64,000 nt of DNA from an uncultured bacterium (GCA_903825105.1 CAIJZI010000007.1:23178-87177); one strand, 5' to 3'; positions 7,921 to 34,719 are shown, numbered from the stretch's first letter. Numbers and translations are program-made. The notes: generated from the letters alone by a model not told the origin.

Positions 7921-8466
7921 ATGAACAAAATGATTGCGTGGCTCCGAGAAGGTGCCACTTTCTGGGAGCTTTTTAAGTACCTCCCCGGGCTGATCCTCCT
8001 ACAAATGTTCTTGATTGTTGTAGGAGTCAAATTCGCGGGTCTGTTCTTTTCAGAAGCGTCGATCAACTCTAATGACGCTGTGATCGACACTGTGATCGCG
8101 CATTCCAACTTGGCAAAACAGTTCTTCATATTTACGGTGAAAGATCCCTTTTATGAAGAGGTGTTTTACCGGTTTACTCCATTCTGCGCGCTTTTGGTGT
8201 TGATGTGGCTAAAAAAGACCAAAGATGAAAAGGGTGCGGCGTGGGATGTTGCCGTGTACATTGTGGTTACCTCTGCATTCTTTGGATATGTGCATGGTCC
8301 TGGAGGTATTTTCATTCAAGGCCTGTCGGGCATTGTGCTCGCGATCGTATTCCTAAAATGGAGCGCGCTCGGTGCGAAACTGTTTAAAGGCCTGCTCGCC
8401 AGCACGATAGTGCATGGCGCGTACAATGGCGCCCTGCTGATCATACTGTTAAGTCTCCATCGCTAA
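7921..8466 (+). CDS. CPBP-family (CAAX protease/Abi) intramembrane metalloprotease
   Basis: motifs EEVFYRF (EExxxR), FGYVH (FxxxH), HGAYN (HxxxN); multi-TM. Confidence 0.7.
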   Translation: MNKMIAWLREGATFWELFKYLPGLILLQMFLIVVGVKFAGLFFSEASINSNDAVIDTVIAHSNLAKQFFIFTVKDPFYEEVFYRFTPFCALLVLMWLKKTKDEKGAAWDVAVYIVVTSAFFGYVHGPGGIFIQGLSGIVLAIVFLKWSALGAKLFKGLLASTIVHGAYNGALLIILLSLHR

Positions 8467-8481
8467 TCCTGTTCTAACTCG

Positions 8482-8513
8482 AGGCCCTGCCGCTTACACG
8501 GCAGGGCTTTTTC
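8482..8513 (+). terminator. rho-independent terminator
   Basis: GGCCCTGCCG-CTTACAC-GGCAGGGC then TTTTTCTATTT. Confidence 0.65.
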
Positions 8514-8674
8514 TATTTAAAACAGACTTATCCACACCCCTTGCTTTTTTTTACAATTTCTGACATACTATTTCTAACTCGCAGAGTATTCGAGCTTCGC
8601 TCGGTTCGTTCGCCAATCTGGTGAATGACCGCAAGTGTTCAGTTTCGGCGAGGTTACTAAGTTAAATCCAATAC

Positions 8675-9043
8675 ATGGACAATCCGCAATCAGTTCAGGG
8701 GAACAAGCTCTATGTGGGCGGTATCCCTTATCGCTCAACAGAAGATGATATGAAGAAGGCCTTTAGCGAGGCTGGTTCAGTCGTTTCTGCGAGCATTATC
8801 AGTGACCGTATGACGGGCCGCTCACGCGGTTTCGGCTTCGTCGAAATGGCGTCTGAAGCAGAGGCTCAGGCGGCTATCGACCGATGGGACGGGAAGGAAA
8901 TGGATGGCCGAACGCTCTCCGTTTCTTTCGCACGCCCACAGGGTGATCGACCTCCTCGCCGCGATGGCGGTTTCGGAGGTGGTGACCGAGGTGGATACGG
9001 AGGCGGCAATAGCCAAGGTGGCTATGGCCGAGGTGGATACTAA
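8675..9043 (+). CDS. RRM-type glycine-rich RNA-binding protein
   Basis: RNP-2 LYVGGI and RNP-1 RGFGFVEM; C-terminal GGYGGG repeats; ~160-nt 5' UTR. Confidence 0.8.
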   Translation: MDNPQSVQGNKLYVGGIPYRSTEDDMKKAFSEAGSVVSASIISDRMTGRSRGFGFVEMASEAEAQAAIDRWDGKEMDGRTLSVSFARPQGDRPPRRDGGFGGGDRGGYGGGNSQGGYGRGGY

Positions 9044-9864: not shown

Positions 9865-11091
9865 ATGACTGAGCCACTTTCGACCGACCCGTATAAAGGC
9901 GTCCGCGACTTTTATCCTAGCGATTATGCACGAATGAACGCGATGTTCGCGCGCATCCGCGAGACATTATTTAAGTGGGGTTATGAAGAATACAACGCAT
10001 CGCCCTTGGAACGCGCCGAGATCTACGAAGCGAAGACTTCAGAAGAAATCGTGAATGAGCAGACCTATACTTTCACCGACCGCGGAGAACGCCGCGTGAC
10101 GCTGCGCCCCGAGATGACACCAACCCTCGCGAGAATGGTCTCGGCGAAGCGCCGCGAGCTCGCCTTCCCGCTCCGCTGGTTCTCTATCGGCAATCGCTTC
10201 CGCTATGAGCGTCCACAAAAAGGCAGGCTGCGAGAGTTTTACCAAACCGACATCGACCTTATCGGCCTCCCTGAAGGCGAAGCAGATCTTGAGATTATTA
10301 AAATCGCTTCAGAAATTTTGAAATCTTTTGGTGCTAAAGAAAGTGACTTTATCATTCGCATCAATTCGCGTTCTCTCTTAAACGAAGCGTGTCGCGAGGC
10401 CGGGCTCACGAGTGACGGTGTGCGCCAGTACCTCCGTCTCCTCGATAAAAAAGCGAAAATAACGGTGGAAGAATTTAAAGAAGCACTCGCCGCGATTACT
10501 ACCAAAGATCCGCTCTCTCTTATTCAGACGGAAAAGATGGACGCATTTCTCGCGACTCTCAAAGAACGCGGCGTTATGAATGCGACCTTTGACGCTGGTA
10601 TCACGCGCGGGTTTGATTATTACACCGGGATGGTTTTTGAAATATATGATACAAACCCGACGAATCCGCGCGCACTCTTCGGCGGCGGTCGCTACGACGG
10701 GCTTGTCGCCCTCTTCGGCGGCGACCCGATCCCTGCAGTTGGGTTCGCGCTCGGTGATGTGACGCTTGCCGACTTCCTCGAGACGCACAATCTTGTACCG
10801 AAGTCAGACTTCGGTAAACCGAAACTCTATATCGGTACCCCGTCGGTAGATACGATTCCTGCGGCACAAACATTCGCTAACACACTCCGCGAACAGGGCG
10901 TGTGCGTCTTCGTTAATCTCACGAGCCGCGGGCTCGGCGACCAGATTAAAGATGCGGTGAAGCGCGACATTCCCTTCTTCCTCGCGTACGGCGCTGATGA
11001 AGAAAAAAATAAAACGGTAAAGATGAAAGTGCTCGCGACGGGTGAAGAAAAAAATATCCCTGTTTCTGAAATCATAAGCGTTATCAAATAA
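9865..11091 (+). CDS. hisS: histidyl-tRNA synthetase
   Basis: class II motifs; LRPEMTP, GGRYDGL; length 408 aa. Confidence 0.9.
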   Translation: MTEPLSTDPYKGVRDFYPSDYARMNAMFARIRETLFKWGYEEYNASPLERAEIYEAKTSEEIVNEQTYTFTDRGERRVTLRPEMTPTLARMVSAKRRELAFPLRWFSIGNRFRYERPQKGRLREFYQTDIDLIGLPEGEADLEIIKIASEILKSFGAKESDFIIRINSRSLLNEACREAGLTSDGVRQYLRLLDKKAKITVEEFKEALAAITTKDPLSLIQTEKMDAFLATLKERGVMNATFDAGITRGFDYYTGMVFEIYDTNPTNPRALFGGGRYDGLVALFGGDPIPAVGFALGDVTLADFLETHNLVPKSDFGKPKLYIGTPSVDTIPAAQTFANTLREQGVCVFVNLTSRGLGDQIKDAVKRDIPFFLAYGADEEKNKTVKMKVLATGEEKNIPVSEIISVIK

Positions 11092-16951: not shown

Positions 16952-17022
16952 AACGGCGCGAGGTAACCCTCGCGCCGTTTCTCTTTTGACTTGGAGGTCC
17001 GACCTCCAAGTTTTTTGTTTTT
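16952..17022. terminator. bidirectional twin terminator hairpins (GGTAACC-loop and CTTGGAGG..CCTCCAAG) between small ORF and rpoC
   Basis: AACGGCGCGAGG-TAA-CCCTCGCGCCGTT and CTTGGAGGTCCGACCTCCAAG followed by TTTTTTGTTTTT. Confidence 0.65.
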
Positions 17023-20000
17023 ATAATGAACGCGGTGTGCGCGTGTTGTAGTTCTGTCGCGCAGACGATTCTATCACCGGCTGTTCTGCTTGAAGTTTCG
17101 CGATCATCGCATGCTTCTTGCTCCCCGCGAAGCCTGTTCCTGAAGGGATCAATCGCCCGAGAATAATATTCTCTTTAAGCCCGCGCAGACGATCCACACT
17201 GCCGCGAAGTGCCGCGTTGATGAGAATCTTCGTTGTCTGTTCGAATGACGCAGCCGAGAGGAACGAACGGCGCGAGAGCGCACTCTCTTTAATACCGAGG
17301 ACGATATCGTGTGCCGAGGGCGCGATCTTATTCGCTGCTTCCATCTCTGCTACCGCCTTTCCAAATTCCCAATCTTCGACAACATCGCCGACTGAATATT
17401 CGGTGTCGCCCGGATCAGTGATCTTCATACGCGAGAACATCTGCTTCACGATAACTTCGAAGTGCTTTCTAGACACATGAGCGCCCTGGAGTTCATAAAT
17501 CTTCGAGCCTTCGCCGATGATATATTCCTGAACCGCTTCGCGCGTTGCATATTCGAAGAGTTCATCGAGATCTGCTGAACCGTCGGTAAGAATCTGACCC
17601 TTCGAGACGAGGTCACCCTCCTTCACCAGCGCGACGCGTGGATACGGCGCGAGATATTCGTACGAAGAACCATCCTTCTTGCCCTGCCCTTCTTTCGGAG
17701 CGACAACGATAACCTTCTCGCGACCTGACTCTTTTATTTCAGACACAATGCCATCTGACTTCGAGACAACAGCCGGATTCTTCGGTGAACGCTTTTCGAA
17801 GACTTCTTCAACGCGCGGGAGTCCGCCCGTGATGTCTCCACCAACAGAGGCGACGCCTCCGGTGTGGAAGGTGCGGAGCGTGAGCTGTGTGCCCGGTTCA
17901 CCGATCGCTTGTGCAGCGACGGTACCAACGGCTTCACCGAGATCAACCATCTCTTGTGTGGTGAGGTCGACACCGTAGCAGGTCTGACAGATGCCGTAGC
18001 GTGTTTCGCAGGACATCGGCGAGCGCGCGACAATCGACATTACTGGTGAAGCGGCAATGGTATCTGCATCAAGTGCAGAAATATAATGCCCCTTCTTAAA
18101 GAGAACGACCCCGTCCGTATCTGCTACATCTTCGGCGAGAACGCGACCACGAATCGCTTCTGCATAATCGATTTTAATTCCTGATGCGCTGATGCGATTA
18201 ATCTTCACCCCGCGCTTCGTCTTACAATCTTTTTCAGTAATAATTGAGTCCTGCGCAACATCGAAGAGTCGGCGAGTGAGGTAACCCGCCTTCGCTGTGC
18301 CGAGCGCAGTGTCAGCGAGACCCTTTCTCGAGCCGTGCGTTGACATGAAGTATTCAATCGAATTAAGTCCTTCGACAAGCGAAGAAAGAATTGGGACTTC
18401 GATCGTTTCTCCAACGGTGTTCTGCATGAGGCCCTTCATACCTGCCATCTGATTAATCTGCCCGAGAGAACCGCGAGCGCCCGAGGTGATCATGTCAGCT
18501 ACTGAACCCATAGGATTAAGTCCTTCGACAACGAGCTGCTGGATTTCTTGGTTCACACCCTGCCAGATTTCTATCGCCATTCGACGCTTCTCTTCTACCG
18601 AGAGCAATCCTTCTTGGTAATCACTTTCAATCTTAGCTATTTTTTCTGCTGCCACTTCTATAACCTTCGCCTTTTTCTCTGGCACAAGCATGTCGTCGAT
18701 TGCCCACGAGACGCCTGACTTCGTCGCATATTCGAAACCGAAACGCTTCACTTTATTTACAATTGCTGGTACCGAGTCAAGCCCGTAGAGCACGATACAT
18801 TCATCAACGACTCGAGCGAGAACCTTCTTCGTAATCGTTTCGTTAATAAATGGATAATCTTTCGGCAAGACGGTGTTGAAGAGGAGACGACCGACAGTTG
18901 TCTCAAATGGACGGCCATCAAATTTCTCATATTTCTTTTTACCTGCGATAGGCAAGACTTTAATCTTCGCGCGCATATCGATAGCGCCATATTCGGAGGT
19001 GAGAATCGCGGCATTTGGCGAGGCGAAATATTCTCCTTCTCCCTTTGTCTTTTCAGCAACCTTGGTGAGCCAATACACGCCGAGAATAATATCGAGCGGC
19101 TTTCCGGTGAGCACGATCGTGTCGCCCGAGCCCGGCTTCAAGATGTTCTTATTCGCACTCATAATGTTCGCGGCTTCCCACTGTGCTTCTTCAGAGAGCG
19201 GTACATGAACTGCCATTTGGTCACCGTCGAAGTCTGCGTTGAAAGCGTTACAAACGAGCGGGTGCAACTGAATCGCATCTCCTTCAATAAGACGCGGATG
19301 GAATGCTTGAATACCCTGGCGGTGAAGCGTTGGTGCGCGGTTGAGGAGCACATGTTTATCCGCGATAACTTCTTCGAGAATTTCCCAGACTTCTGGCACA
19401 CCGTCGTCAATGAGGCGACCGGCGCCACGGATGTTGAAGGCGAGTTCGCGCTTCAAGAGTCCAGCGATAACGAATGGGCGGAAGAGTTCGAGCGCCATAT
19501 GCTTCGGCAGACCACATTCATTGAGCTCGAGATTCGGGCCGATAACAATAACCGAGCGGCCTGAATAATCGACGCGCTTACCGAGAAGGTTCTGGCGGAA
19601 ATACCCCTGCTTACCCTTAAGATAATCAGCGAGCGACTTGAGCGGTCGGCGCTGGGCGAGCGTTATCGCGCCAGCAGAAGCGCCACTCTTCCTAATTGAA
19701 TTGTCGAGAAGCGCATCAACGGCTTCTTGGAGAATTCTTTTTTCATTTCGAAGAATAACTTCAGGTGCGTGGATGTCGATGAGTTTCTTCAAACGATTAT
19801 TACGATTGATGACACGGCGATAAAGGTCGTTCACATCTGAGGTCGCGTGGCGGCCACCTTCGAGCGCGACCATTGGGCGGAGCGCTGGTGGGATAACCGG
19901 AATGCGCGTGAGGAAGAGCCACTCTGGACGGATGTTTGCCGCGATGAGCCCGGCAATAAGCGAGAGACGCTTCGCGATTTTTTCTTTTTCTGCCGTTCCT

Positions 20001-20752
20001 GCCTTCTCATAACGAGCGAGAAGCGTCTTTTCAAGATCCTTCAGATTAAGAGCGCGAAAAATATCATAAATAGCCTCTGCACCAATGCGTGCTTCGAAGA
20101 GGCCGCCATATTTTACCGAGAAGCGGTGATACTCGAGCTCGTCGAGCACTTTACCCACAACAATGCCTTCGATTTCATTCTTCGCGAAGGTCATCTTCTC
20201 TTTGAGTGCATCGCGTTCAGAATCTTTTTCAAGAGATTTAAACTTCGATTTATATTCGCTCTCGAGTTCTGCGATAAGTCGCTTCTTTTCTTCTTCAGCA
20301 ACCTTCGTGATGATGTGTCCGGCAAAATAAATAACCTTTTCAACATCAGCCGCTGGCGCGCCGAGAATAAGTGCCATGCGCGAAGGAACACTGCGCAAGA
20401 ACCAGATGTGTGCGACCGGAGTACAGAGCTCGATGTGGCCCATTCGCTCTCGTCGAACGATAGAACGCGTAATTTCTACGCCACACTTATCGCAGACAAT
20501 TCCTTTATAACGAATGCCTTTGTACTTCCCGCAGTAACATTCGTAATCCTTTTCAGGGCCGAAGATCTTTTCGTCGAAGAGGCCGTGCTTCTCTGATCGC
20601 TGGGTACGATAATTGATTGTCTCAGGTTTTGTCACTTCGCCTTTACTCCATTCAAGAATCTTTTCTGGAGAAGCGAGTGCGAGGCGGAGACCATTCCATG
20701 TGTCAATCCTGCCCGGAAGAAGAGTGCGTCGTGTTCGTGGTGTAAGTGCCAT
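17021..20752 (-). CDS. rpoC: DNA-directed RNA polymerase subunit beta'
   Basis: 1243 aa; NADFDGD catalytic motif, zinc-binding CxxC clusters. Confidence 0.95.
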   Translation of the reverse strand: MALTPRTRRTLLPGRIDTWNGLRLALASPEKILEWSKGEVTKPETINYRTQRSEKHGLFDEKIFGPEKDYECYCGKYKGIRYKGIVCDKCGVEITRSIVRRERMGHIELCTPVAHIWFLRSVPSRMALILGAPAADVEKVIYFAGHIITKVAEEEKKRLIAELESEYKSKFKSLEKDSERDALKEKMTFAKNEIEGIVVGKVLDELEYHRFSVKYGGLFEARIGAEAIYDIFRALNLKDLEKTLLARYEKAGTAEKEKIAKRLSLIAGLIAANIRPEWLFLTRIPVIPPALRPMVALEGGRHATSDVNDLYRRVINRNNRLKKLIDIHAPEVILRNEKRILQEAVDALLDNSIRKSGASAGAITLAQRRPLKSLADYLKGKQGYFRQNLLGKRVDYSGRSVIVIGPNLELNECGLPKHMALELFRPFVIAGLLKRELAFNIRGAGRLIDDGVPEVWEILEEVIADKHVLLNRAPTLHRQGIQAFHPRLIEGDAIQLHPLVCNAFNADFDGDQMAVHVPLSEEAQWEAANIMSANKNILKPGSGDTIVLTGKPLDIILGVYWLTKVAEKTKGEGEYFASPNAAILTSEYGAIDMRAKIKVLPIAGKKKYEKFDGRPFETTVGRLLFNTVLPKDYPFINETITKKVLARVVDECIVLYGLDSVPAIVNKVKRFGFEYATKSGVSWAIDDMLVPEKKAKVIEVAAEKIAKIESDYQEGLLSVEEKRRMAIEIWQGVNQEIQQLVVEGLNPMGSVADMITSGARGSLGQINQMAGMKGLMQNTVGETIEVPILSSLVEGLNSIEYFMSTHGSRKGLADTALGTAKAGYLTRRLFDVAQDSIITEKDCKTKRGVKINRISASGIKIDYAEAIRGRVLAEDVADTDGVVLFKKGHYISALDADTIAASPVMSIVARSPMSCETRYGICQTCYGVDLTTQEMVDLGEAVGTVAAQAIGEPGTQLTLRTFHTGGVASVGGDITGGLPRVEEVFEKRSPKNPAVVSKSDGIVSEIKESGREKVIVVAPKEGQGKKDGSSYEYLAPYPRVALVKEGDLVSKGQILTDGSADLDELFEYATREAVQEYIIGEGSKIYELQGAHVSRKHFEVIVKQMFSRMKITDPGDTEYSVGDVVEDWEFGKAVAEMEAANKIAPSAHDIVLGIKESALSRRSFLSAASFEQTTKILINAALRGSVDRLRGLKENIILGRLIPSGTGFAGSKKHAMIAKLQAEQPVIESSARQNYNTRTPRSL

Positions 20753-28861: not shown

Positions 28862-28899
28862 AAGTAGTTTCTTTAAACTATTTCCGTGTGAAAATATAG

Positions 28900-29286
28900 T
28901 TGATGGATAAAAATTTTGACGAATGGAACGAGTGTAAAAAGAACCGTGACAAAAATGATATTGATATTTATTTTTACGAGCGTGAGATTTGGTGGTGCGC
29001 CATTGGTGTAAATGTAGGATTTGAACAAGATGGGAAAGGTGAGAGATTCGCCCGACCAGTGCTTATAATAAGAAAATTCAGCAAAAATGTATTTCTCGGC
29101 GTTCCACTTACAACAACAAAAAGAGAAAGTAAATATCATCATTCGTTTCCTTTTCTTGAAGCAGAGAGTACTGCGCTTCTTTCGCAAGTACGACTTTTTG
29201 ATTCAAAGAGATTACTTGTAAAAATGGGTAAAGTTTCAGAAAAAATACTTGAGGATGTGCGAGAAAGAGTACGAAAGATCGTCTAG
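28900..29286 (+). CDS. MazF/PemK-family toxin-like endoribonuclease, no adjacent MazE-like gene
   Basis: ..GFEQDGKGERFARPVLIIRKFSKNVFLGVPLTTTKRE.. aligns with MazF core (GSEQ..RPAVVLS....VPCTT). Confidence 0.5.
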   Translation: MMDKNFDEWNECKKNRDKNDIDIYFYEREIWWCAIGVNVGFEQDGKGERFARPVLIIRKFSKNVFLGVPLTTTKRESKYHHSFPFLEAESTALLSQVRLFDSKRLLVKMGKVSEKILEDVRERVRKIV

Positions 29287-29390
29287 AAATTGTTTGAGCC
29301 GCTCTTGCGAGCGGCTCGAGCCCGAAGGCCATTTGTTCAGTTAGTATATACGCCACGCATTGAAAGTCAAATGATGTGTGTGGACAGTCA

Positions 29391-29440
29391 CTGCCGCCGC
29401 GCGCATCGCAGAAAAGGAATTTGATTTTGTTCCTGTGTAA
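29391..29440 (+). repeat. copy 2 of rnr 3'-terminal repeat (47/50 identical to copy 1, keeps stop codon)
   Basis: CTGCCGCCGCGCGCATCGCAGAAAAGGAATTTGATTTTGTTCCTGTGTAA. Confidence 0.8.
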
Positions 29441-29530
29441 TTTATTTTTTATTTGGCAGAGAAATACCTAAATCTTTACAAATCTTGCGCGCCATAAAAG
29501 AATCTATTTCAGAGTGCCGCGGAACAGTGC

Positions 29531-29758
29531 TTATACAATCATTTTTTGGATTCCAAAATATCGTTCACGAACAAGTGAATTACTGCGAGAATTTGTGCGC
29601 TTTGTGAGCGCGCGTCGTGCGAGTAGAAATTCAGAAAGCGCATCTGATAAATTTTCTTTTGCTTCTTTCTTCGAAGAACCCTGCGTATTTACGCCAGGAA
29701 TTTCTTCAAGCCATGCGATATATCCCGTGCGGACTTTTTTATAAATGGCTGTATACAT
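29531..29758 (-). CDS. HicB-family antitoxin-like protein (UPF0150/RNase H-like fold)
   Basis: MYTAIYKKVRTGYIAWLEEIPGVNTQGSSKKEAKENLSDALSEFL matches HicB N-domain consensus (Y.A....dGgY.a..Pe.PG..tqG.T.eEA..n..eA). Confidence 0.45.
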   Translation of the reverse strand: MYTAIYKKVRTGYIAWLEEIPGVNTQGSSKKEAKENLSDALSEFLLARRALTKRTNSRSNSLVRERYFGIQKMIV

Positions 29759-29782
29759 ATCTGAAAGTATACCACACCACAA

Positions 29783-29818
29783 ATTGCCGAAAAAGAATTG
29801 GATTTTGTTCCGGTATAG
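29783..29818 (+). repeat. copy 3 of rnr 3'-terminal repeat (short; encodes IAEKELDFVPV*)
   Basis: ATTGCCGAAAAAGAATTGGATTTTGTTCCGGTATAG. Confidence 0.7.
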
Positions 29819-29820
29819 CC

Positions 29821-29843
29821 AGTGAGAGACTAAAGCTCTCACT
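29821..29843. repeat. hairpin motif AGTGAGAG-NCTAAAG-CTCTCAC, copy 1 of 3
   Basis: AGTGAGAGACTAAAGCTCTCACT; other copies at 32547-32568 and 33072-33093. Confidence 0.6.
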
Positions 29844-29860
29844 ACAAAATTATAAAAGCA

Positions 29861-32122
29861 CTATTTCGCCACGGCGACGGCTTCGTCGAACTTAATCGAC
29901 AGGAGTTTGGAAACGCCATCGCCGCCCATCGTGACGCCGTAGAGAATGTTGGTGCGGCTCATCGTCTCGCGGTTGTGTGTGATGACAATCAGCTGTGATT
30001 TCTTCGCGAGATTTTCTATCATATCGCCATAGCGACGACTGTTCGCTTCGTCGAGCGCCGCGTCGGTCTCGTCGAGAATGAGGAATGGTGGCGGGTTCAC
30101 CTGATTCATCGCGAAGATAAGCGCGATCGAAGTGAGTGCGCGTTCACCGCCCGAGAGCTGCATCAACGAGCGTATTTTCTTTTTCGGCAGACTGATCGTA
30201 ACTTCGATGCCAGCGCGCTGTTTCTCTTTTACTTCGTCAGCTGATTCCTCAGCATCTTCGGACTCATCTAATGAGTCCTCGACTTCCGGCTCCGGTTCTT
30301 CAAGAATGAGTCGCGCGGAGCCTCCGCCAAACATAAGAGCGAAATATTCACTGAAGGAGGCGTTCACGCGTGCGAGTCCATCACTAAAATATTTCGCGAG
30401 TTCGGTATCCAAATCGTGAATGAGCGCGCGAAGCCCCGCCGCCGACTTCGCGAGATCGTCGAGCTCGACTGCGAGGAATGTCTCTCTCTGCGAGACTTCT
30501 TTATGTTCCTGCCGAATATCCTCGCCGCTCCCGCCCGCTTCTTCGAGACGAATTTTATTTCGTTCCAATTTATGCTTGCGTTCCTCCTGCTCACGGCGTT
30601 CTTTCAATTCTTGATCTGAAAGGGTAATCGGTTCATACACCACTGCTTCTGTCCCAGCGACAGCGATTACCTCCCTCTTATTTCTTTCGAGATCTTCTGC
30701 AAAAACGGTCAATTCATATTCACGCGCTTCTGCCTTCGCGACCTCGCCTTCTTGATGTGCCTTTTCTTGTGCAACATCTAGAATGCGGCGGCGGATCTCG
30801 CGCCCCGTTTCTTCAAGCACGACCATCGCCTCGCGCGCTTTCGCGCGTGCTACTTCTGCCTTACCGAGCGCGTCAGACGCTTCTTCATATTTCTTCGCGA
30901 GCTCTGCGCGCTCTGCTTCAAGTTTAAAGGCTGCATTTTCTTCTTCAGAGAAATAATCGTCGCGTGGCGCGCCGTGTCGGGTGAAAAAGAATTTTATCGC
31001 CGAGCGAATCGCAGTCAGCGCGGCGCGCAATGCCTCGGGAGTAACCTCGGCACCTCCGGCGCCCAAAGCGCCTTCGGCTTGTTCGATTTGCTTCTCGATT
31101 TCTTGATGAAGAGACTCGATTTCTTCCCGTGGCACTTTCGCGTACGGCTCGTTCGCGACCCGCGTCGCGCGACGCTTTACCTCCGCGAGAGCACCTTCGA
31201 CGCGGCCGATCTCCCTAGAGAGCGCCGCGCGTGCCGCTGCGAGTTCTGACACTTCTTTTTCTGCATTTCGCAGCGTTTCAGTTCTCTTCATCGTCTCGCT
31301 ATCAGCCGACTGCGAATCGGTAATATGATCAAGCTCTTTATTCGCGGTAGCGAGATTCTCGGCCGCACGCATTTTTTCTTCAGCGACTTTTATTTTTTCG
31401 TGTGCGAGATACGCGTCTTCAATCGAGAAGTAAGTTTGCGCCGCGCTGATTAATTCTTTTCGCAGGTTTTCTGCTTTATCTAATTTTTCAACCTGCTTTT
31501 CTAGAAATTTTAGATGCGGCGCGAGCTCGCGACGCAGAGAATTGACTTGTGCGATATTTTCTTCAGTCTTTATGAGTTTTTTCTCAGCTTCTTGTTTTTT
31601 AAATTCGTAGAGTTTTAATCCGAGAGCATCCTCGAGCATCTCTCTGCGTTCGCGAGGGCTCGCGATAAGGATTCGATCTGCTTCGCCCTGCGAAATGATG
31701 TGGTGACCGGTCTCGCCGATGTTCGCGCCCGCGAGCAATTCTTCGATATCACGCAGGCGCACCCTTGACCCATTAATCGAATATTCACTCGTCCCGTCAC
31801 GGAAGACGGCGCGCTCGATCGTCACTTCATCAAAATCAATTTTGAACGCTCGACGCGAATTGTCGAAAATAACTGCCACCGCCGCGCGCGACGCGCGCGG
31901 CACCGAATGCGAACCGTTCCAAATTAAGTCTTCAGCGCGCTTGCCGCGCATACTCTTCATCGACTGTTCGCCCAGCGCGAAGCGAAAAGCTTCGGCGACA
32001 TTACTCTTCCCTGAGCCGTTGGGCCCCACGATCGCGGTCGCCGCGCTCGGGAAATCTAAAATCGTCTTCTTGGCGAATGACTTAAATCCGACGATCTCGA
32101 GTCGCTTTAACATTACCCTCAT
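29861..32122 (-). CDS. smc: SMC chromosome-segregation ATPase, short hingeless form (753 aa)
   Basis: canonical SMC N-terminal head (LKRLEIVGFKSFAKKT..IVGPNGSGKSNVAEAFRFALGEQSMKSMRG), long coiled coil, C-terminal LSGGERALTSIALIFA..ILDETDAALD; no hinge-like G-rich segment; rnc nearby as in rnc-smc operons. Confidence 0.7.
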   Translation of the reverse strand: MRVMLKRLEIVGFKSFAKKTILDFPSAATAIVGPNGSGKSNVAEAFRFALGEQSMKSMRGKRAEDLIWNGSHSVPRASRAAVAVIFDNSRRAFKIDFDEVTIERAVFRDGTSEYSINGSRVRLRDIEELLAGANIGETGHHIISQGEADRILIASPRERREMLEDALGLKLYEFKKQEAEKKLIKTEENIAQVNSLRRELAPHLKFLEKQVEKLDKAENLRKELISAAQTYFSIEDAYLAHEKIKVAEEKMRAAENLATANKELDHITDSQSADSETMKRTETLRNAEKEVSELAAARAALSREIGRVEGALAEVKRRATRVANEPYAKVPREEIESLHQEIEKQIEQAEGALGAGGAEVTPEALRAALTAIRSAIKFFFTRHGAPRDDYFSEEENAAFKLEAERAELAKKYEEASDALGKAEVARAKAREAMVVLEETGREIRRRILDVAQEKAHQEGEVAKAEAREYELTVFAEDLERNKREVIAVAGTEAVVYEPITLSDQELKERREQEERKHKLERNKIRLEEAGGSGEDIRQEHKEVSQRETFLAVELDDLAKSAAGLRALIHDLDTELAKYFSDGLARVNASFSEYFALMFGGGSARLILEEPEPEVEDSLDESEDAEESADEVKEKQRAGIEVTISLPKKKIRSLMQLSGGERALTSIALIFAMNQVNPPPFLILDETDAALDEANSRRYGDMIENLAKKSQLIVITHNRETMSRTNILYGVTMGGDGVSKLLSIKFDEAVAVAK

Positions 32123-32150
32123 TGTACCAAATAAAATGATGTGCTATTCT
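32122..32150 (+). promoter_or_regulatory. putative sigma70-like promoter for 32190 ORF (TTGTAC-17-TATTCT)
   Basis: spacing 17 nt; ~40 nt upstream of the start codon. Confidence 0.3.
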
Positions 32151-32189
32151 CCCAATCGGAAAAGACTGTTTAGAAAACTGGAGGAACAC

Positions 32190-32468
32190 ATGCCAATTAA
32201 CATCAGTGACCACGCAAAAGCAGAGGCAGAGGCAACGAGAATGGCTGTTGATAGACTCAGTCTTGAGCTCTTGGCATATGTGCGTGTGGATCGGCGCACA
32301 TTTACCTCTTATCTGAGGAAGTACGCGGAAAAGATCGACGATCAAACGGATGAGGATTTTGCGACTGGCTACAGCAATTCGGCACGGAGACTTCGCAGGG
32401 CGAGCTTCGCTCAAGGAGACCTTCCGCCCAGCGTCCGAGCCCCCGAACGGATGGATCCACGCGATTAA
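32190..32468 (+). CDS. hypothetical protein (92 aa), orphan
   Basis: GGAGG SD 6 nt upstream of ATG; followed by strong terminator; no family recognised. Confidence 0.35.
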   Translation: MPINISDHAKAEAEATRMAVDRLSLELLAYVRVDRRTFTSYLRKYAEKIDDQTDEDFATGYSNSARRLRRASFAQGDLPPSVRAPERMDPRD

Positions 32469-32483
32469 ACCACGCAACACCAC

Positions 32484-32522
32484 GGGCCGCCTGAAATCAG
32501 GCGGCCCGATTCTTTTTATTTT
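32484..32522 (+). terminator. rho-independent terminator (module duplicated at 33007-33046)
   Basis: GGGCCGCCTGAAATCAGGCGGCCC then GATTCTTTTTATTTT. Confidence 0.75.
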
Positions 32523-32523
32523 A

Positions 32524-32568
32524 CTTAGGTGTCTCGCCGCTAAGTTAGTGAGAGCCTAAAGCTCTCGC
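32524..32568. repeat. 24-bp sequence identical to lipase CDS (262-285) followed by AGTGAGAG..CTCTCGC hairpin (copy 2)
   Basis: ACTTAGGTGTCTCGCCGCTAAGTT exact at both loci. Confidence 0.7.
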
Positions 32569-32645
32569 TTGGGGGCCGGACACCCAAGCTGCCAACTCGC
32601 TTGTGTAGCAAGGTTAAACCTCGCTAAAACGACCCCTCGAAAAAC

Positions 32646-32674
32646 TTGACTGATAACATTAGATGTGATATTGT
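32646..32674 (+). promoter_or_regulatory. putative sigma70-like promoter (TTGACT-17-TATTGT)
   Basis: seen directly, ~27 nt upstream of ATG 32701. Confidence 0.4.
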
Positions 32675-32700
32675 ATTCCCCAGAAAGGAAAGGGTGGCAA

Positions 32701-32991
32701 ATGCCAAACATTGTTATTGTTGGATTCAAACCTGGGGAGCTTCCAATTGTGAGAGGCCGGATTTCAATCATTGTCACAGGACTTGGAATTGCCGGGGCTG
32801 ATGGTGTTATCACTTGTTTCCAAAACGCATCAGCCGTAGATATAACAAAAGAACACAACGACGCCCCGTACGTCATCGTCCGCGACACAGAAGAAAATCG
32901 TGCAATGTTGATCGCGAGGGAGATCAACCTCAAACTGAATGTCGATGTCGAACTGGAAGTTCTCCACGCATTCTTGCCGAAGAGACATTGA
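32701..32991 (+). CDS. hypothetical protein (96 aa), orphan
   Basis: SD AAAGGAAAGGGTGG; followed by terminator near-identical to 32484-32522. Confidence 0.35.
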   Translation: MPNIVIVGFKPGELPIVRGRISIIVTGLGIAGADGVITCFQNASAVDITKEHNDAPYVIVRDTEENRAMLIAREINLKLNVDVELEVLHAFLPKRH

Positions 32992-33006
32992 GCATGTCCG
33001 CACCAC

Positions 33007-33046
33007 GAGCCGCCTGAACAAGGCGGCTCGATTCTTTTTACTTTTT
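33007..33046 (+). terminator. rho-independent terminator (duplicate of 32484 module)
   Basis: GAGCCGCCTGAACAAGGCGGCTC then GATTCTTTTTACTTTTTT. Confidence 0.75.
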
Positions 33047-33047
33047 T

Positions 33048-33093
33048 ACCGAAGTTTAACTTCGGTATTTTAGTGAGAGTCTAAAGCTCTCAC
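33048..33093. repeat. hairpin ACCGAAGTT-TAA-CTTCGGT plus AGTGAGAG-TCTAAAG-CTCTCAC hairpin (copy 3) overlapping rnc stop codon
   Basis: seen directly. Confidence 0.6.
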
Positions 33094-33779
33094 CAATTCA
33101 TTTTTTTAAGACCTGCTTCGGCGGCGAGCTGTTCGGCTTCTTGCTTACTCTGCCCTTCGCCCCGAGCGATTTCTTTTTCACCAATAAAAACACCGACGGT
33201 AAAGGTGCGTGCATGGTCCGGCCCCACTTCTGAAAGGGTTTCGTAGCGCGGCGTGATGCTCTTCTTTTCTTGTGACAATTCTTGGAATCGACTCTTCGCG
33301 TCCTGGTGTGCACCTTTTGAAATTATTTCGTCAATTTTTATATATACATTTTTTGCAATAAAAGCTTCTGCTTTTTCATATCCAGAATCCAAATAAATCG
33401 CGCCGATAATCGCTTCAAATGCGTCAGCGAGAATCACATCGCGCGCGCGGCCCGTGTCCTTCGACTCGCCTTTTGAAAGCAACATATAATCATTCACGCC
33501 AAGCGCCTTCGCGCTCTCGGCGAGCGACACCGTGTTTACCAAGGCCGCGCGATAGCTCGTGAGCTCGCCTTCTGATTTCGCGGGGAATTTTTTAAAAAGA
33601 AAATCCGTCACGACCAGTTCAAGCACAGCGTCACCGAGGAATTCTAATCGCTCATTATGACTGCCCACATAGTCGCGGTGTTCGTTTAGGTACGAACGAT
33701 GCGTCAAAGCCTCGATGAGAAGGTTTTGATTATTAAATTTGATATTGAGTTCGTTAGAAAATTGAAGAAAATCAGGCAT
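33090..33779 (-). CDS. rnc: ribonuclease III
   Basis: RNase III signature ERLEFLGDAVLELVV, C-terminal dsRBD. Confidence 0.9.
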   Translation of the reverse strand: MPDFLQFSNELNIKFNNQNLLIEALTHRSYLNEHRDYVGSHNERLEFLGDAVLELVVTDFLFKKFPAKSEGELTSYRAALVNTVSLAESAKALGVNDYMLLSKGESKDTGRARDVILADAFEAIIGAIYLDSGYEKAEAFIAKNVYIKIDEIISKGAHQDAKSRFQELSQEKKSITPRYETLSEVGPDHARTFTVGVFIGEKEIARGEGQSKQEAEQLAAEAGLKKMNW

Positions 33780-34719
33780 GTGCGCGTGGGAGCGTAGTCG
33801 TTACATTCGCGTGGTCGAGCAGCTTCTGTACCGCCTCCGTCACGATTGGGAGCATATCATCATAGAAGTTAAGGTCAATGATGTCCTTCAGCCGAAACCA
33901 CTTCGCGTCGTCGAGCCCGCCTTTACCCTGCTGGAGATGGAGCTGCTCGAATTCGGCACGCGCGAGGAAGTAGGTCACATGCTTTCGATACTTCCCCTTC
34001 TCCGGATGCGAAGCGACATACTCGTTTTCGCCGATCTTTCCTTCGAGTTTTATATCGATGCCGATTTCTTCTTTTACTTCGCGAATCGTGCCCTCTTCTG
34101 TAGTCTCGTGCGCGATAGTAGGATTGTCGCCAATCTTACCTTTTGAAAGAGTCCAGTGACCGAAAACATCGTGAACGAGAGCGAGATAATACTGCCCATC
34201 GTGTTTACAATAAACGACCGCGCCGCCGAGTCGCTGTATCGGAATGTCTTCATACTTCACTTTGGTACTCTTCTTTTCTGCCTGCTCATTCTTCCCTGGT
34301 TCGCCGAGCTCTTTGTAGACGGCACCCAAAACGCCGTTGACGAATCTGCCACTCGATTCTCCGCCAAAAGTCTTCGCGAGTTCGATCGCTTCATTAATCG
34401 CCACCTTCGCGGGCACTTGTGTTCGATCGGCGAAAAGGAGCTCGTAGAGCCCGATGCGCAGAATATTTCTATCCACAGGAGCGATGCGCTCCATCGACCA
34501 TTCAGGCGCAGCTTTTTCAATAACTAAATCGATGTCTTCTTTTTTTGATAACACGCCGAGCAGAAGCTTCTCCATAAACGGCCGGTCTGCATCATCACCA
34601 CAAAACTCTTTTACATTTCTTTCGAGAATAATGGCTGAATCTTTTTCTTGTGCATTTGTTGTGTCCCACTCAAAAAGTGTTTGGAGAACAACTGATCGGG
34701 CTAGGTGTCGGTTCGCCAT
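33772..34719 (-). CDS. nusB: NusB antitermination factor fused to C-terminal Nudix hydrolase domain
   Basis: NusB region (..VDRNILRIGLYELLF..AINEAIELAKTFGGESSGRFVNGVLG); Nudix box GKIGDNPTIAHETTEEGTIREVKEEIGI (Gx5Ex7REVxEExGI). Confidence 0.6.
   Translation of the reverse strand: MANRHLARSVVLQTLFEWDTTNAQEKDSAIILERNVKEFCGDDADRPFMEKLLLGVLSKKEDIDLVIEKAAPEWSMERIAPVDRNILRIGLYELLFADRTQVPAKVAINEAIELAKTFGGESSGRFVNGVLGAVYKELGEPGKNEQAEKKSTKVKYEDIPIQRLGGAVVYCKHDGQYYLALVHDVFGHWTLSKGKIGDNPTIAHETTEEGTIREVKEEIGIDIKLEGKIGENEYVASHPEKGKYRKHVTYFLARAEFEQLHLQQGKGGLDDAKWFRLKDIIDLNFYDDMLPIVTEAVQKLLDHANVTTTLPRAHA

Follow-up and report, generated by a model that had tools for sequence, protein, structure and literature searches.

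Two opposite-strand gene units and a REP-type hairpin between rnc and smc in a Candidatus Kaiserbacteria genome

Two small genes in the rnc-smc spacer

A stretch of 64,000 nucleotides from an uncultured bacterium (GCA_903825105.1 CAIJZI010000007.1:23178-87177, hereafter the window) carries, between rnc and smc, two small open reading frames (ORFs), g1 and g2, both on the strand opposite to their neighbours. The two appear to be independent expression units: each runs from its own promoter through a small ORF to an intrinsic terminator (T1 or T2) and is then followed by a cluster of short palindromes that includes a repeated hairpin, here called REP1 (Table 1). The host can be placed in Candidatus Kaiserbacteria / Paceibacterota, a lineage of the Candidate Phyla Radiation (CPR), from relatives of its RNase III at 64-84% identity. 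The source contig is 91 kb long, and four samples contain the locus. An earlier note on this DNA had described the pair as orphan genes with sigma70-like promoters of their own, bounded by duplicated terminator-hairpin modules, and had suggested that cassette-like units invaded a conserved neighbourhood, perhaps by way of a small-gene shuffling mechanism. Both ORFs are indeed present, as are the near-identical terminator modules with a hairpin after each of them.

Table 1. Position of the features at the rnc-smc locus and its flanks, in window coordinates
Feature	Position	Strand	Remarks
MazF/PemK-like ORF	28900-29286	+
Extra rnr 3' end	29394-29441
HicB/UPF0150-like ORF	about 29531-29758	-
Extra rnr 3' end	29780-29818
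REP1 copy A	29821-29842	+	18 nt past smc stop, 2 nt after stop codon of relic rnr 3' end
smc	29861-32122	-
g1 promoter-like site	32122-32150	+	TTGTAC-17-TGcTATTCT, overlaps smc start codon
g1	32190-32468	+	92-aa ORF; GGAGG 5 nt before ATG (strong ribosome-binding site)
T1, intrinsic terminator	32483-32518	+	11-bp stem at 32483-32508, then T-run
Degenerate palindrome ACTTAGGTGTCTCGCCGCTAAGT	32523-32545	none	Between T1 and copy B; kept in nearest relative
REP1 copy B	32547-32568	+	After T1; one change, A to G, which keeps a T-G wobble on the + strand only
Degenerate second-family palindrome GCTTGGGGGCCGGACACCCAAGC	32567-32589	none	First element of inserted unit
g2 unit, 525 bp	32569-33093	+	Missing in nearest relative (alignment); starts exactly after copy B, ends with copy C
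g2 promoter	32646-32674	+	Sigma-70-like, TTGACT-17-TGtTATTGT (-10 TATTGT with upstream TG)
g2	32701-32991	+	96-aa ORF
T2, intrinsic terminator	33006-33040	+	10-bp stem at 33006-33030, then T-run
Third-family palindrome TACCGAAGTTTAACTTCGGTA	33047-33067	none	Between T2 and copy C
REP1 copy C	33072-33093	+	After T2; right arm gives rnc TGA stop (33090-33092, - strand)
rnc	33090-33779	-
nusB-NUDIX	33772-34719	-	Final 8 nt overlap rnc start

In 76 related loci, namely those among 80 related genome loci in which rnc and smc were both found, the genes stand in the same order, nusB(-NUDIX) - rnc - smc, and rnr converges on smc. Comparing the smc-rnc interval across relatives had been proposed in the earlier note, and by gene positions this spacer is clearly variable: it measures at most 69 bp in 39 of the 76 and 103-5450 bp in the other 37, while the smc-rnr spacer ranges from an overlap up to 2438 bp. 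The spacers of the relatives contain 174 ORFs, mostly unrelated, of which 122 are singletons; neither g1 nor g2 was found in any of the 80 loci, and the rnc-smc gaps of relatives with large gaps yielded no repeated perfect-stem hairpin. Since the spacers vary in size and their content is mostly unrelated, the two flanks of smc are hot spots of turnover in this family.

The g2 promoter was found by our scan, and the g1 site was read by eye from the sequence, as its score of 8/12 is below the scan threshold; the latter is preserved in L109, a metagenome contig that is the nearest relative found. Word-index protein searches with g1 and with g2 each returned the query alone. For g1, AlphaFold2 without alignments gave a low-confidence three-helix model (pLDDT 56) that is unusable. 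The g1 slot of L109 holds a different ORF, of 58 aa; no similarity was found between it and g1, and the 12-mer common to the two sits in different reading frames. Because the same slot encodes something else in L109, either g1 is a small protein that evolves rapidly or it is no stable gene at all.

Neither gene matched Pfam, NCBIfam, PHROGs or PADLOC. The description of both as orphans is therefore correct as regards curated families and, for g1, as regards homologues in general, but it has to be given up for g2, for which an exhaustive HMMER search recovered 54 full-length homologue clusters at E <= 1e-3 (seven at <= 1e-10). These are 33-54% identical, with a family length of ~90-110 aa and conserved motifs MPNIxIVGF, APYLIVRDT, DVExE and GFLP in the alignment, and come, where the source is named, from Minisyncoccia or Paceibacterota. 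With these, g2 defines an unnamed, uncharacterised and apparently CPR-restricted family of small proteins (~95 aa). Its homologues in four other genomes are monocistronic, with their own promoter and terminator, and these four contexts have no common neighbours and no REP1 hairpin. The g2 profile gave nothing significant against PDB and Pfam, with no solved relative, and the AlphaFold2 model made without an alignment (pLDDT 35) is unusable. A tautomerase-like protein, with an N-terminal Met-Pro and two beta-alpha-beta halves, was considered as an idea only and was left without support.

The two terminators have G+C-rich stems, common flanks and the same ATTCTTTTTA tail. Their stems are nearly identical, the exception being one compensatory exchange (CGGGCC../..GGCCCG in one, CGAGCC../..GGCTCG in the other), and the two 3' modules of about 92-95 nt, counted from terminator to hairpin, align with each other (repeat families D1, D11 and D16) and fold with z = -7 and -8 relative to shuffles. 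In each module, a terminator is joined to a group of short palindromes, a repetitive extragenic palindrome (REP) cluster. Both terminators are one-directional, with the T-run on the + strand only; they would halt the + strand transcripts of g1 and g2 ahead of rnc. Transcripts of rnc may continue into smc, passing g2 and g1 in antisense, and REP hairpins would stand on the - strand at the 3' ends of both coding regions, that of rnc and that of smc. In E. coli, such repeats stabilise the mRNA upstream of them and reduce translation if a stop codon lies within about 15 nt.

The REP1 hairpin and its RAYT-like gene

REP1 has the form AGTGAGAG-N-CTAAAG-CTCTC[A/G]C. As the 22-nt sequence AGTGAGAGNCTAAAGCTCTCAC it occurs three times in the window within at most one mismatch, always on the + strand; a fourth copy was not found in the 64 kb even at 3 mismatches, and the number expected by chance from 100 shuffles is 0. 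Copy A, at the convergent rnr/smc junction, is the third copy that the earlier note had placed after the rnr cassettes, where the two extra rnr 3' ends are real. The extended consensus, C-AGTGAGAG-Y-CTAAAG-CTCTCACT-G, gives a stem of about 8-10 bp and a loop of 5 nt, and folding as DNA yields -6.2 to -7.4 kcal/mol (z about -4.4 to -4.8). In Rfam, searched at a permissive threshold, the hairpin matches no family; the sole match, RAGATH-25, fell below threshold (18 versus 49 bits) and lies on the third palindrome.

A metagenome scan for the 22-mer, restricted to exact matches, returned 81 copies on 69 stretches, in 66 distinct contexts, from contigs of 31-62% GC in groundwater, sediment and lake data sets. 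The 22-mer was not found in 2.9 million viral contigs, nor in the 80 related genome loci even when 3-4 mismatches were allowed. Fifteen of the 66 contexts are in frame inside ORFs, 32 are other intergenic sites, and 19 are linked to a gene resembling the REP-associated tyrosine transposases (RAYTs). On at least 13 contigs, copies of the 22-mer bracket this RAYT-like ORF of 220-228 aa in a fixed layout: one copy is inverted, 41-55 nt before the start; a second, also inverted, lies within the reading frame at nt +168 to +186 and encodes VRALDSHS; and one is direct, on or beside the stop codon, overlapping its TAG. All three are present in 11 of the 13 contigs, and two in L118 and L123. These layouts identify the hairpin as a repeat that flanks RAYT-like genes, and its family is widespread in CPR metagenomes.

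The RAYT-like protein matches Pfam Y1_Tnp (IS200-like) with 29.2 bits, above the gathering cut-off of 23, and its top NCBIfam match is REP-associated tyrosine transposase (REP_Tyr_transpos, NF047646). The family profile has E. coli TnpA-REP (PDB 4er8, E = 4.3e-5) as its best PDB match, with weak matches to 2xm3; the single sequence matched nothing in PDB, and the family profile was needed. H-x-H and Y-x-x-x-N are invariant in the family alignment. Other clades of the protein, at 25-41% identity, occur in 12 Kaiserbacteria relatives and in L109, mostly in the smc-rnr spacer, and at least ten of the relatives (L006, L009, L012, L027, L028, L031, L035, L049, L054 and L063), together with L109, have these genes bracketed by palindromes of their own (TATGGACTTACGATGTCCATA, ACTAGGACATCSGATGTCCTAGT, TGTGCAACACCWGGTGTTGCACA and others), different from REP1. 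RAYT clade and palindrome covary, and therefore bear the mark of REP/RAYT units. In all 81 metagenome copies the first base of the loop, which pairs with an opposite G, is C or T, and the single change of copy B keeps a T-G wobble; both details fit a hairpin read on one strand.

REPs are short palindromes of 20-40 nt that form a stem-loop, and REP1 is one of this size and shape. REPs are known to lie at gene 3' ends, to provide stop codons and to occur inside ORFs (PMC3733652), and RAYTs are single-copy genes associated with them (PMC5581495). Here, likewise, copy A lies between the convergent rnr relic and smc, copy C supplies the stop codon of rnc and one copy overlaps the TAG of the RAYT-like gene, and the same palindrome brackets a Y1/HUH transposase-like gene, with other palindromes at other RAYT clades; this bracketing was found in metagenome contigs and not inside the window. 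The REPtrons and REPINs of Proteobacteria share these short 3'-end palindromes, some of which give a stop codon or sit inside ORFs (PMC3733652, PMC5581495, PMC3479197), and a protein of such a system, TnpA-REP, is the best structural-sequence match. The hairpin represents a new family within an established class of repeats, the REP type, and not a new gene-shuffling system. The odd repeated hairpin of this locus so receives a concrete identity, and the earlier idea of a boundary specific to cassettes loses its ground, given the spread of contexts over RAYT-linked, intergenic and in-ORF sites; the g2 homologues of four other genomes, moreover, lack the hairpin.

To date, the literature that we searched holds no report of REP/RAYT systems in CPR bacteria. 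Such systems, hitherto seen mainly in Proteobacteria and a few other phyla, appear to be present in these tiny genomes, with unusual traits: few copies, one 22-mer across very different genomes, and an in-frame copy within the transposase-like gene. The in-frame cognate palindrome of the VRALDSHS clade at nt +168 to +186 was seen in L084, L096, L113, L114, L123, L125, L131, L132, L138, L141, L147 and L151. A second RAYT clade, in L006, L009, L027 and L109, has an in-frame internal palindrome that encodes SMDIVSPY. In both clades the palindrome lies within a loop missing from a third clade and is conserved as nucleotides (0-3 mismatches of 22).

The 22-mer is also found in frame (SESLKLSL) within a ~330-aa reverse transcriptase (RT) gene (Pfam RVT_1), in a gene resembling cysteinyl-tRNA synthetase (CysRS) and in other ORFs (L086:3704, L093, L094, L098, L108, L120, L133 and L137; L117:1581; L103:1084). 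In the RT gene it presumably replaces residues and adds none, judged against the LtrA motif. Rickettsia palindromic elements likewise lie in frame inside coding genes, but they are 100-150 bp long and have no known dedicated transposase, whereas REP1 adds only 7-8 codons. Just 5' of the hairpin-bearing RT gene is a conserved, apparently non-protein-coding stretch (L086, about 2419-2900; L133, about 8180-8710), which may be a non-coding RNA partner, perhaps retron-like.

The g2 unit and its possible origins

The contig L109, whose smc is 87% identical to that of the window, has a smc-proximal promoter and 5' untranslated region ~90% identical to ours and the same module of terminator, palindrome and hairpin, which there abuts rnc. 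In the alignment of the two, the flanks are conserved and a 525-bp indel falls cleanly at the end of the REP. The segment missing from L109 comprises, in order, a palindrome, the promoter, g2, T2, a palindrome and REP1 copy C. As aligned, the 525-bp g2 unit is present or absent exactly at the REP border, and the terminator-REP module is duplicated at its borders. A second cassette with the same layout is a Phd/ParE toxin-antitoxin pair in L091, which lies between direct repeats of ~70 nt, each with a weak terminator and the same REP at its end, and which likewise starts with a palindrome of another family. The 76 relatives, the variable spacer, the g2 insertion relative to L109 and the L091 cassette together bear out in part the earlier view of a conserved rnc-smc neighbourhood invaded by cassette-like units.

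We favour, at a probability of about 0.68, the reading that the locus is a lineage-specific insertion spot in an otherwise tight rnc-smc operon, which holds two opposite-strand units and a REP-type hairpin of a RAYT-flanking family. A gain of the g2 unit is favoured because g2 is missing from all other relatives. The unit was most likely gained by recombination within the terminator-REP module, either through Campbell-type integration of a circular piece or through homology-anchored recombination of DNA that was taken up. The duplicated pieces are varied (coding 3' ends, terminators and REPs), and no integrase or transposase was found among 30 mid-sized ORFs of the window, in a scan that covered ORFs of up to 453 aa, or among the ORFs adjoining the locus. 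For these two reasons we rank short-segment recombination above RAYT-driven transposition; a dedicated small-gene shuffling machinery, as the earlier note had envisaged, was not found in the scanned window ORFs.

Several points weigh against this reading. The polarity of the change, gain here or loss in L109, rests on parsimony only. The likeness of T1 to T2 exceeds that of either to the L109 terminator, while the palindrome between terminator and REP differs; the history is therefore mosaic. REP1 copies are few, three in 64 kb and all within 3.3 kb, and the metagenome contigs carry 1-3 exact copies each, with single ones on contigs of 112-360 kb. No RAYT homologue was found in the 64-kb window by tblastn and a six-frame profile search. 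The RAYT-like protein reaches only 31.4 bits against the NF047646 equivalog cut-off of 80, as befits a remote relative and no equivalog. An unpaired GTAG or CGTC at one end of the palindrome defines the REP tag (PMC3733652); neither tag was found at REP1, where the only preferred flanking bases, C at -1 and TG at +1/+2, lengthen the stem. REP1 differs from the known REP/RAYT systems in this respect and in its very low copy number, its occurrence mostly as singlets rather than inverted doublets, its identical 22-mer over contigs of 31-62% GC, its in-frame copy inside the RAYT-like gene (in two clades) and its CPR host.

Alternatively, a RAYT/IS200-type single-strand transposase could have moved the g2 unit as a non-autonomous mobile cassette, with the REP hairpins as its ends or its target; REP-bounded units of promoter, gene and terminator would then hop between REP sites. 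The end hairpins of IS200/IS605 elements stand in direct orientation in the IS608 mechanism, and so do the hairpins around g2; the insert begins exactly at the 3' foot of copy B, the L091 cassette of the same layout opens with a palindrome of another family, and the wobble pairs point to recognition of one strand. Indeed, IS200/IS605 elements (IS608, ISDra2) and their non-autonomous derivatives share with the present system a Y1 HUH fold family, one-strand hairpins and direct-orientation ends. We nevertheless consider such a cassette unlikely, because the empty site of L109 retains one REP, unlike clean IS608-type excision, only 2 of the 66 contexts hold such cassettes, the terminator beyond the REP is duplicated too, the duplicated rnr and rnc flanks of relatives are coding 3' ends without this REP, and the window yielded no RAYT. 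The transposase-like gene, moreover, does not lie inside a multi-copy element and is not accompanied by TnpB, and the cargo here is a promoter-gene-terminator unit.

An equally improbable history would have g2 and both modules ancestral, with L109 having lost the 525-bp unit by recombination between direct terminator-REP repeats. Direct repeats of ~90 nt around 430 bp are a classic deletion substrate and the indel borders match them, but a g2 homologue is nowhere present in the loci of the 80 related genomes, and 39 of the 76 relatives have a spacer no longer than 69 bp. In L109 the module combines B-like with C-like parts, a pattern that gain and deletion can both produce.

Slightly more doubtful still is a speculative extension, in which terminator-REP modules would be attachment sites for cassette capture in CPR bacteria. 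A trans-acting Y1 RAYT-like transposase, or some other enzyme, would insert circularised units next to REPs or gene 3' ends and copy the attachment sequence each time, in a manner like that of integrons, built on REPs and not on attC and IntI. If this were true, the circularised promoter-gene-terminator units captured would be small accessory genes and toxin-antitoxin pairs.

There is very little to recommend the hairpin as the site of a site-specific recombinase, whether attC-like as in integrons or Xer/dif-like as in integrative mobile elements exploiting Xer (IMEX) and Acinetobacter pdif modules, with the small genes as its cassettes. Each small gene does end in a palindrome of the same orientation, toxin-antitoxin genes are close by, an attachment-like sequence is duplicated at the rnr 3' end and, as in integron and pdif arrays, content varies among relatives. 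Integrons have IntI, attI, Pc and promoterless cassettes that end in attC with R''/R' cores; at this locus no integrase was found in the ORFs scanned, both cassettes have a promoter-like site of their own, and GTTRRRY cores were not seen by eye. Xer/dif sites span 28-30 bp, with 11-bp arms on both sides of a spacer of 6-8 bp, and the chromosomal one lies at the replication terminus; REP1 has arms of 9 bp and a loop of 5 nt, versus 11-6-11, and the idea of a dif or terminus site was dropped since no GC-skew switch was found at the locus (near 30-33 kb). The same hairpin also flanks a Y1 transposase gene on both sides and occurs in frame within ORFs, and its sequence is unlike attC or Xer sites.

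Just as poorly placed is the notion that the hairpins act only locally, on RNA or on transcription (as helpers of termination, stabilisers of mRNA 3' ends or an operator), and were duplicated locally with no link to mobile DNA. In its favour, each of the three window copies stands at the 3' end of a gene, a scan flagged the hairpin that follows g2 as terminator-like, and REPs do act as RNA elements (PMC3733652). Against it speak the identical 22-mer in 66 unrelated contexts over 31-62% GC, its fixed layout around a transposase-like gene and the lack of an Rfam match; moreover, it describes a likely function in place and not an origin.

Duplicated flanks, other palindromes and neighbouring genes

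The flanks of smc hold further duplicated pieces. In the window, the two extra rnr 3' ends separate the MazF/PemK-like ORF from the HicB/UPF0150-like ORF (region considered, 28862-29860), and 11 of 47 relatives have one or two extra rnr 3' ends in the smc-rnr gap; because of the extra copies in both, the rnr 3' end seems to act like an attachment site for small cassettes. Extra rnc 3' ends are found in L057 and L075. Recombination that duplicates a flank is thus recurrent. The smc flanks of Kaiserbacteria emerge as natural sites of gene turnover with duplicated flanks, useful for studying how small accessory genes are gained in reduced genomes. In L057:10483-11600, the stretch from the rnc 3' end through a small membrane ORF to the smc 5' end is duplicated in tandem; the small ORFs in it are of two different kinds, and a chimeric smc5'::rnc3' ORF is present. 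This segment could be either a product of Campbell-type integration or an assembly that merged two strains.

The palindromes flanking copy B resemble a second family, ACTTGGGGGTCSGACCCCCAAGT, the likeness of the one at 32523-32545 being judged by eye. This family also occurs in L019, L023, L059 and L062 and at window 16989-17011; the latter copy, ACTTGGAGGTCCGACCTCCAAGT, lies 10 nt beyond the stop of a - strand ORF (17021-20752). The third family, TACCGAAGT...ACTTCGGTA, has further copies in L026 and L085 and at window 10796-10816, where the copy, TACCGAAGTCAGACTTCGGTA, falls within the gene for His-tRNA synthetase, in the linker that precedes its anticodon-binding domain.

The product of the gene called smc has just 753 aa; SMC_N is matched end to end, with no Pfam match for the hinge domain, and all 76 relatives align to it over the same length. 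Upstream of rnc, nusB is fused to a NUDIX hydrolase domain in a protein of 315 aa, according to precomputed Pfam matches of an identical metagenome-contig gene.

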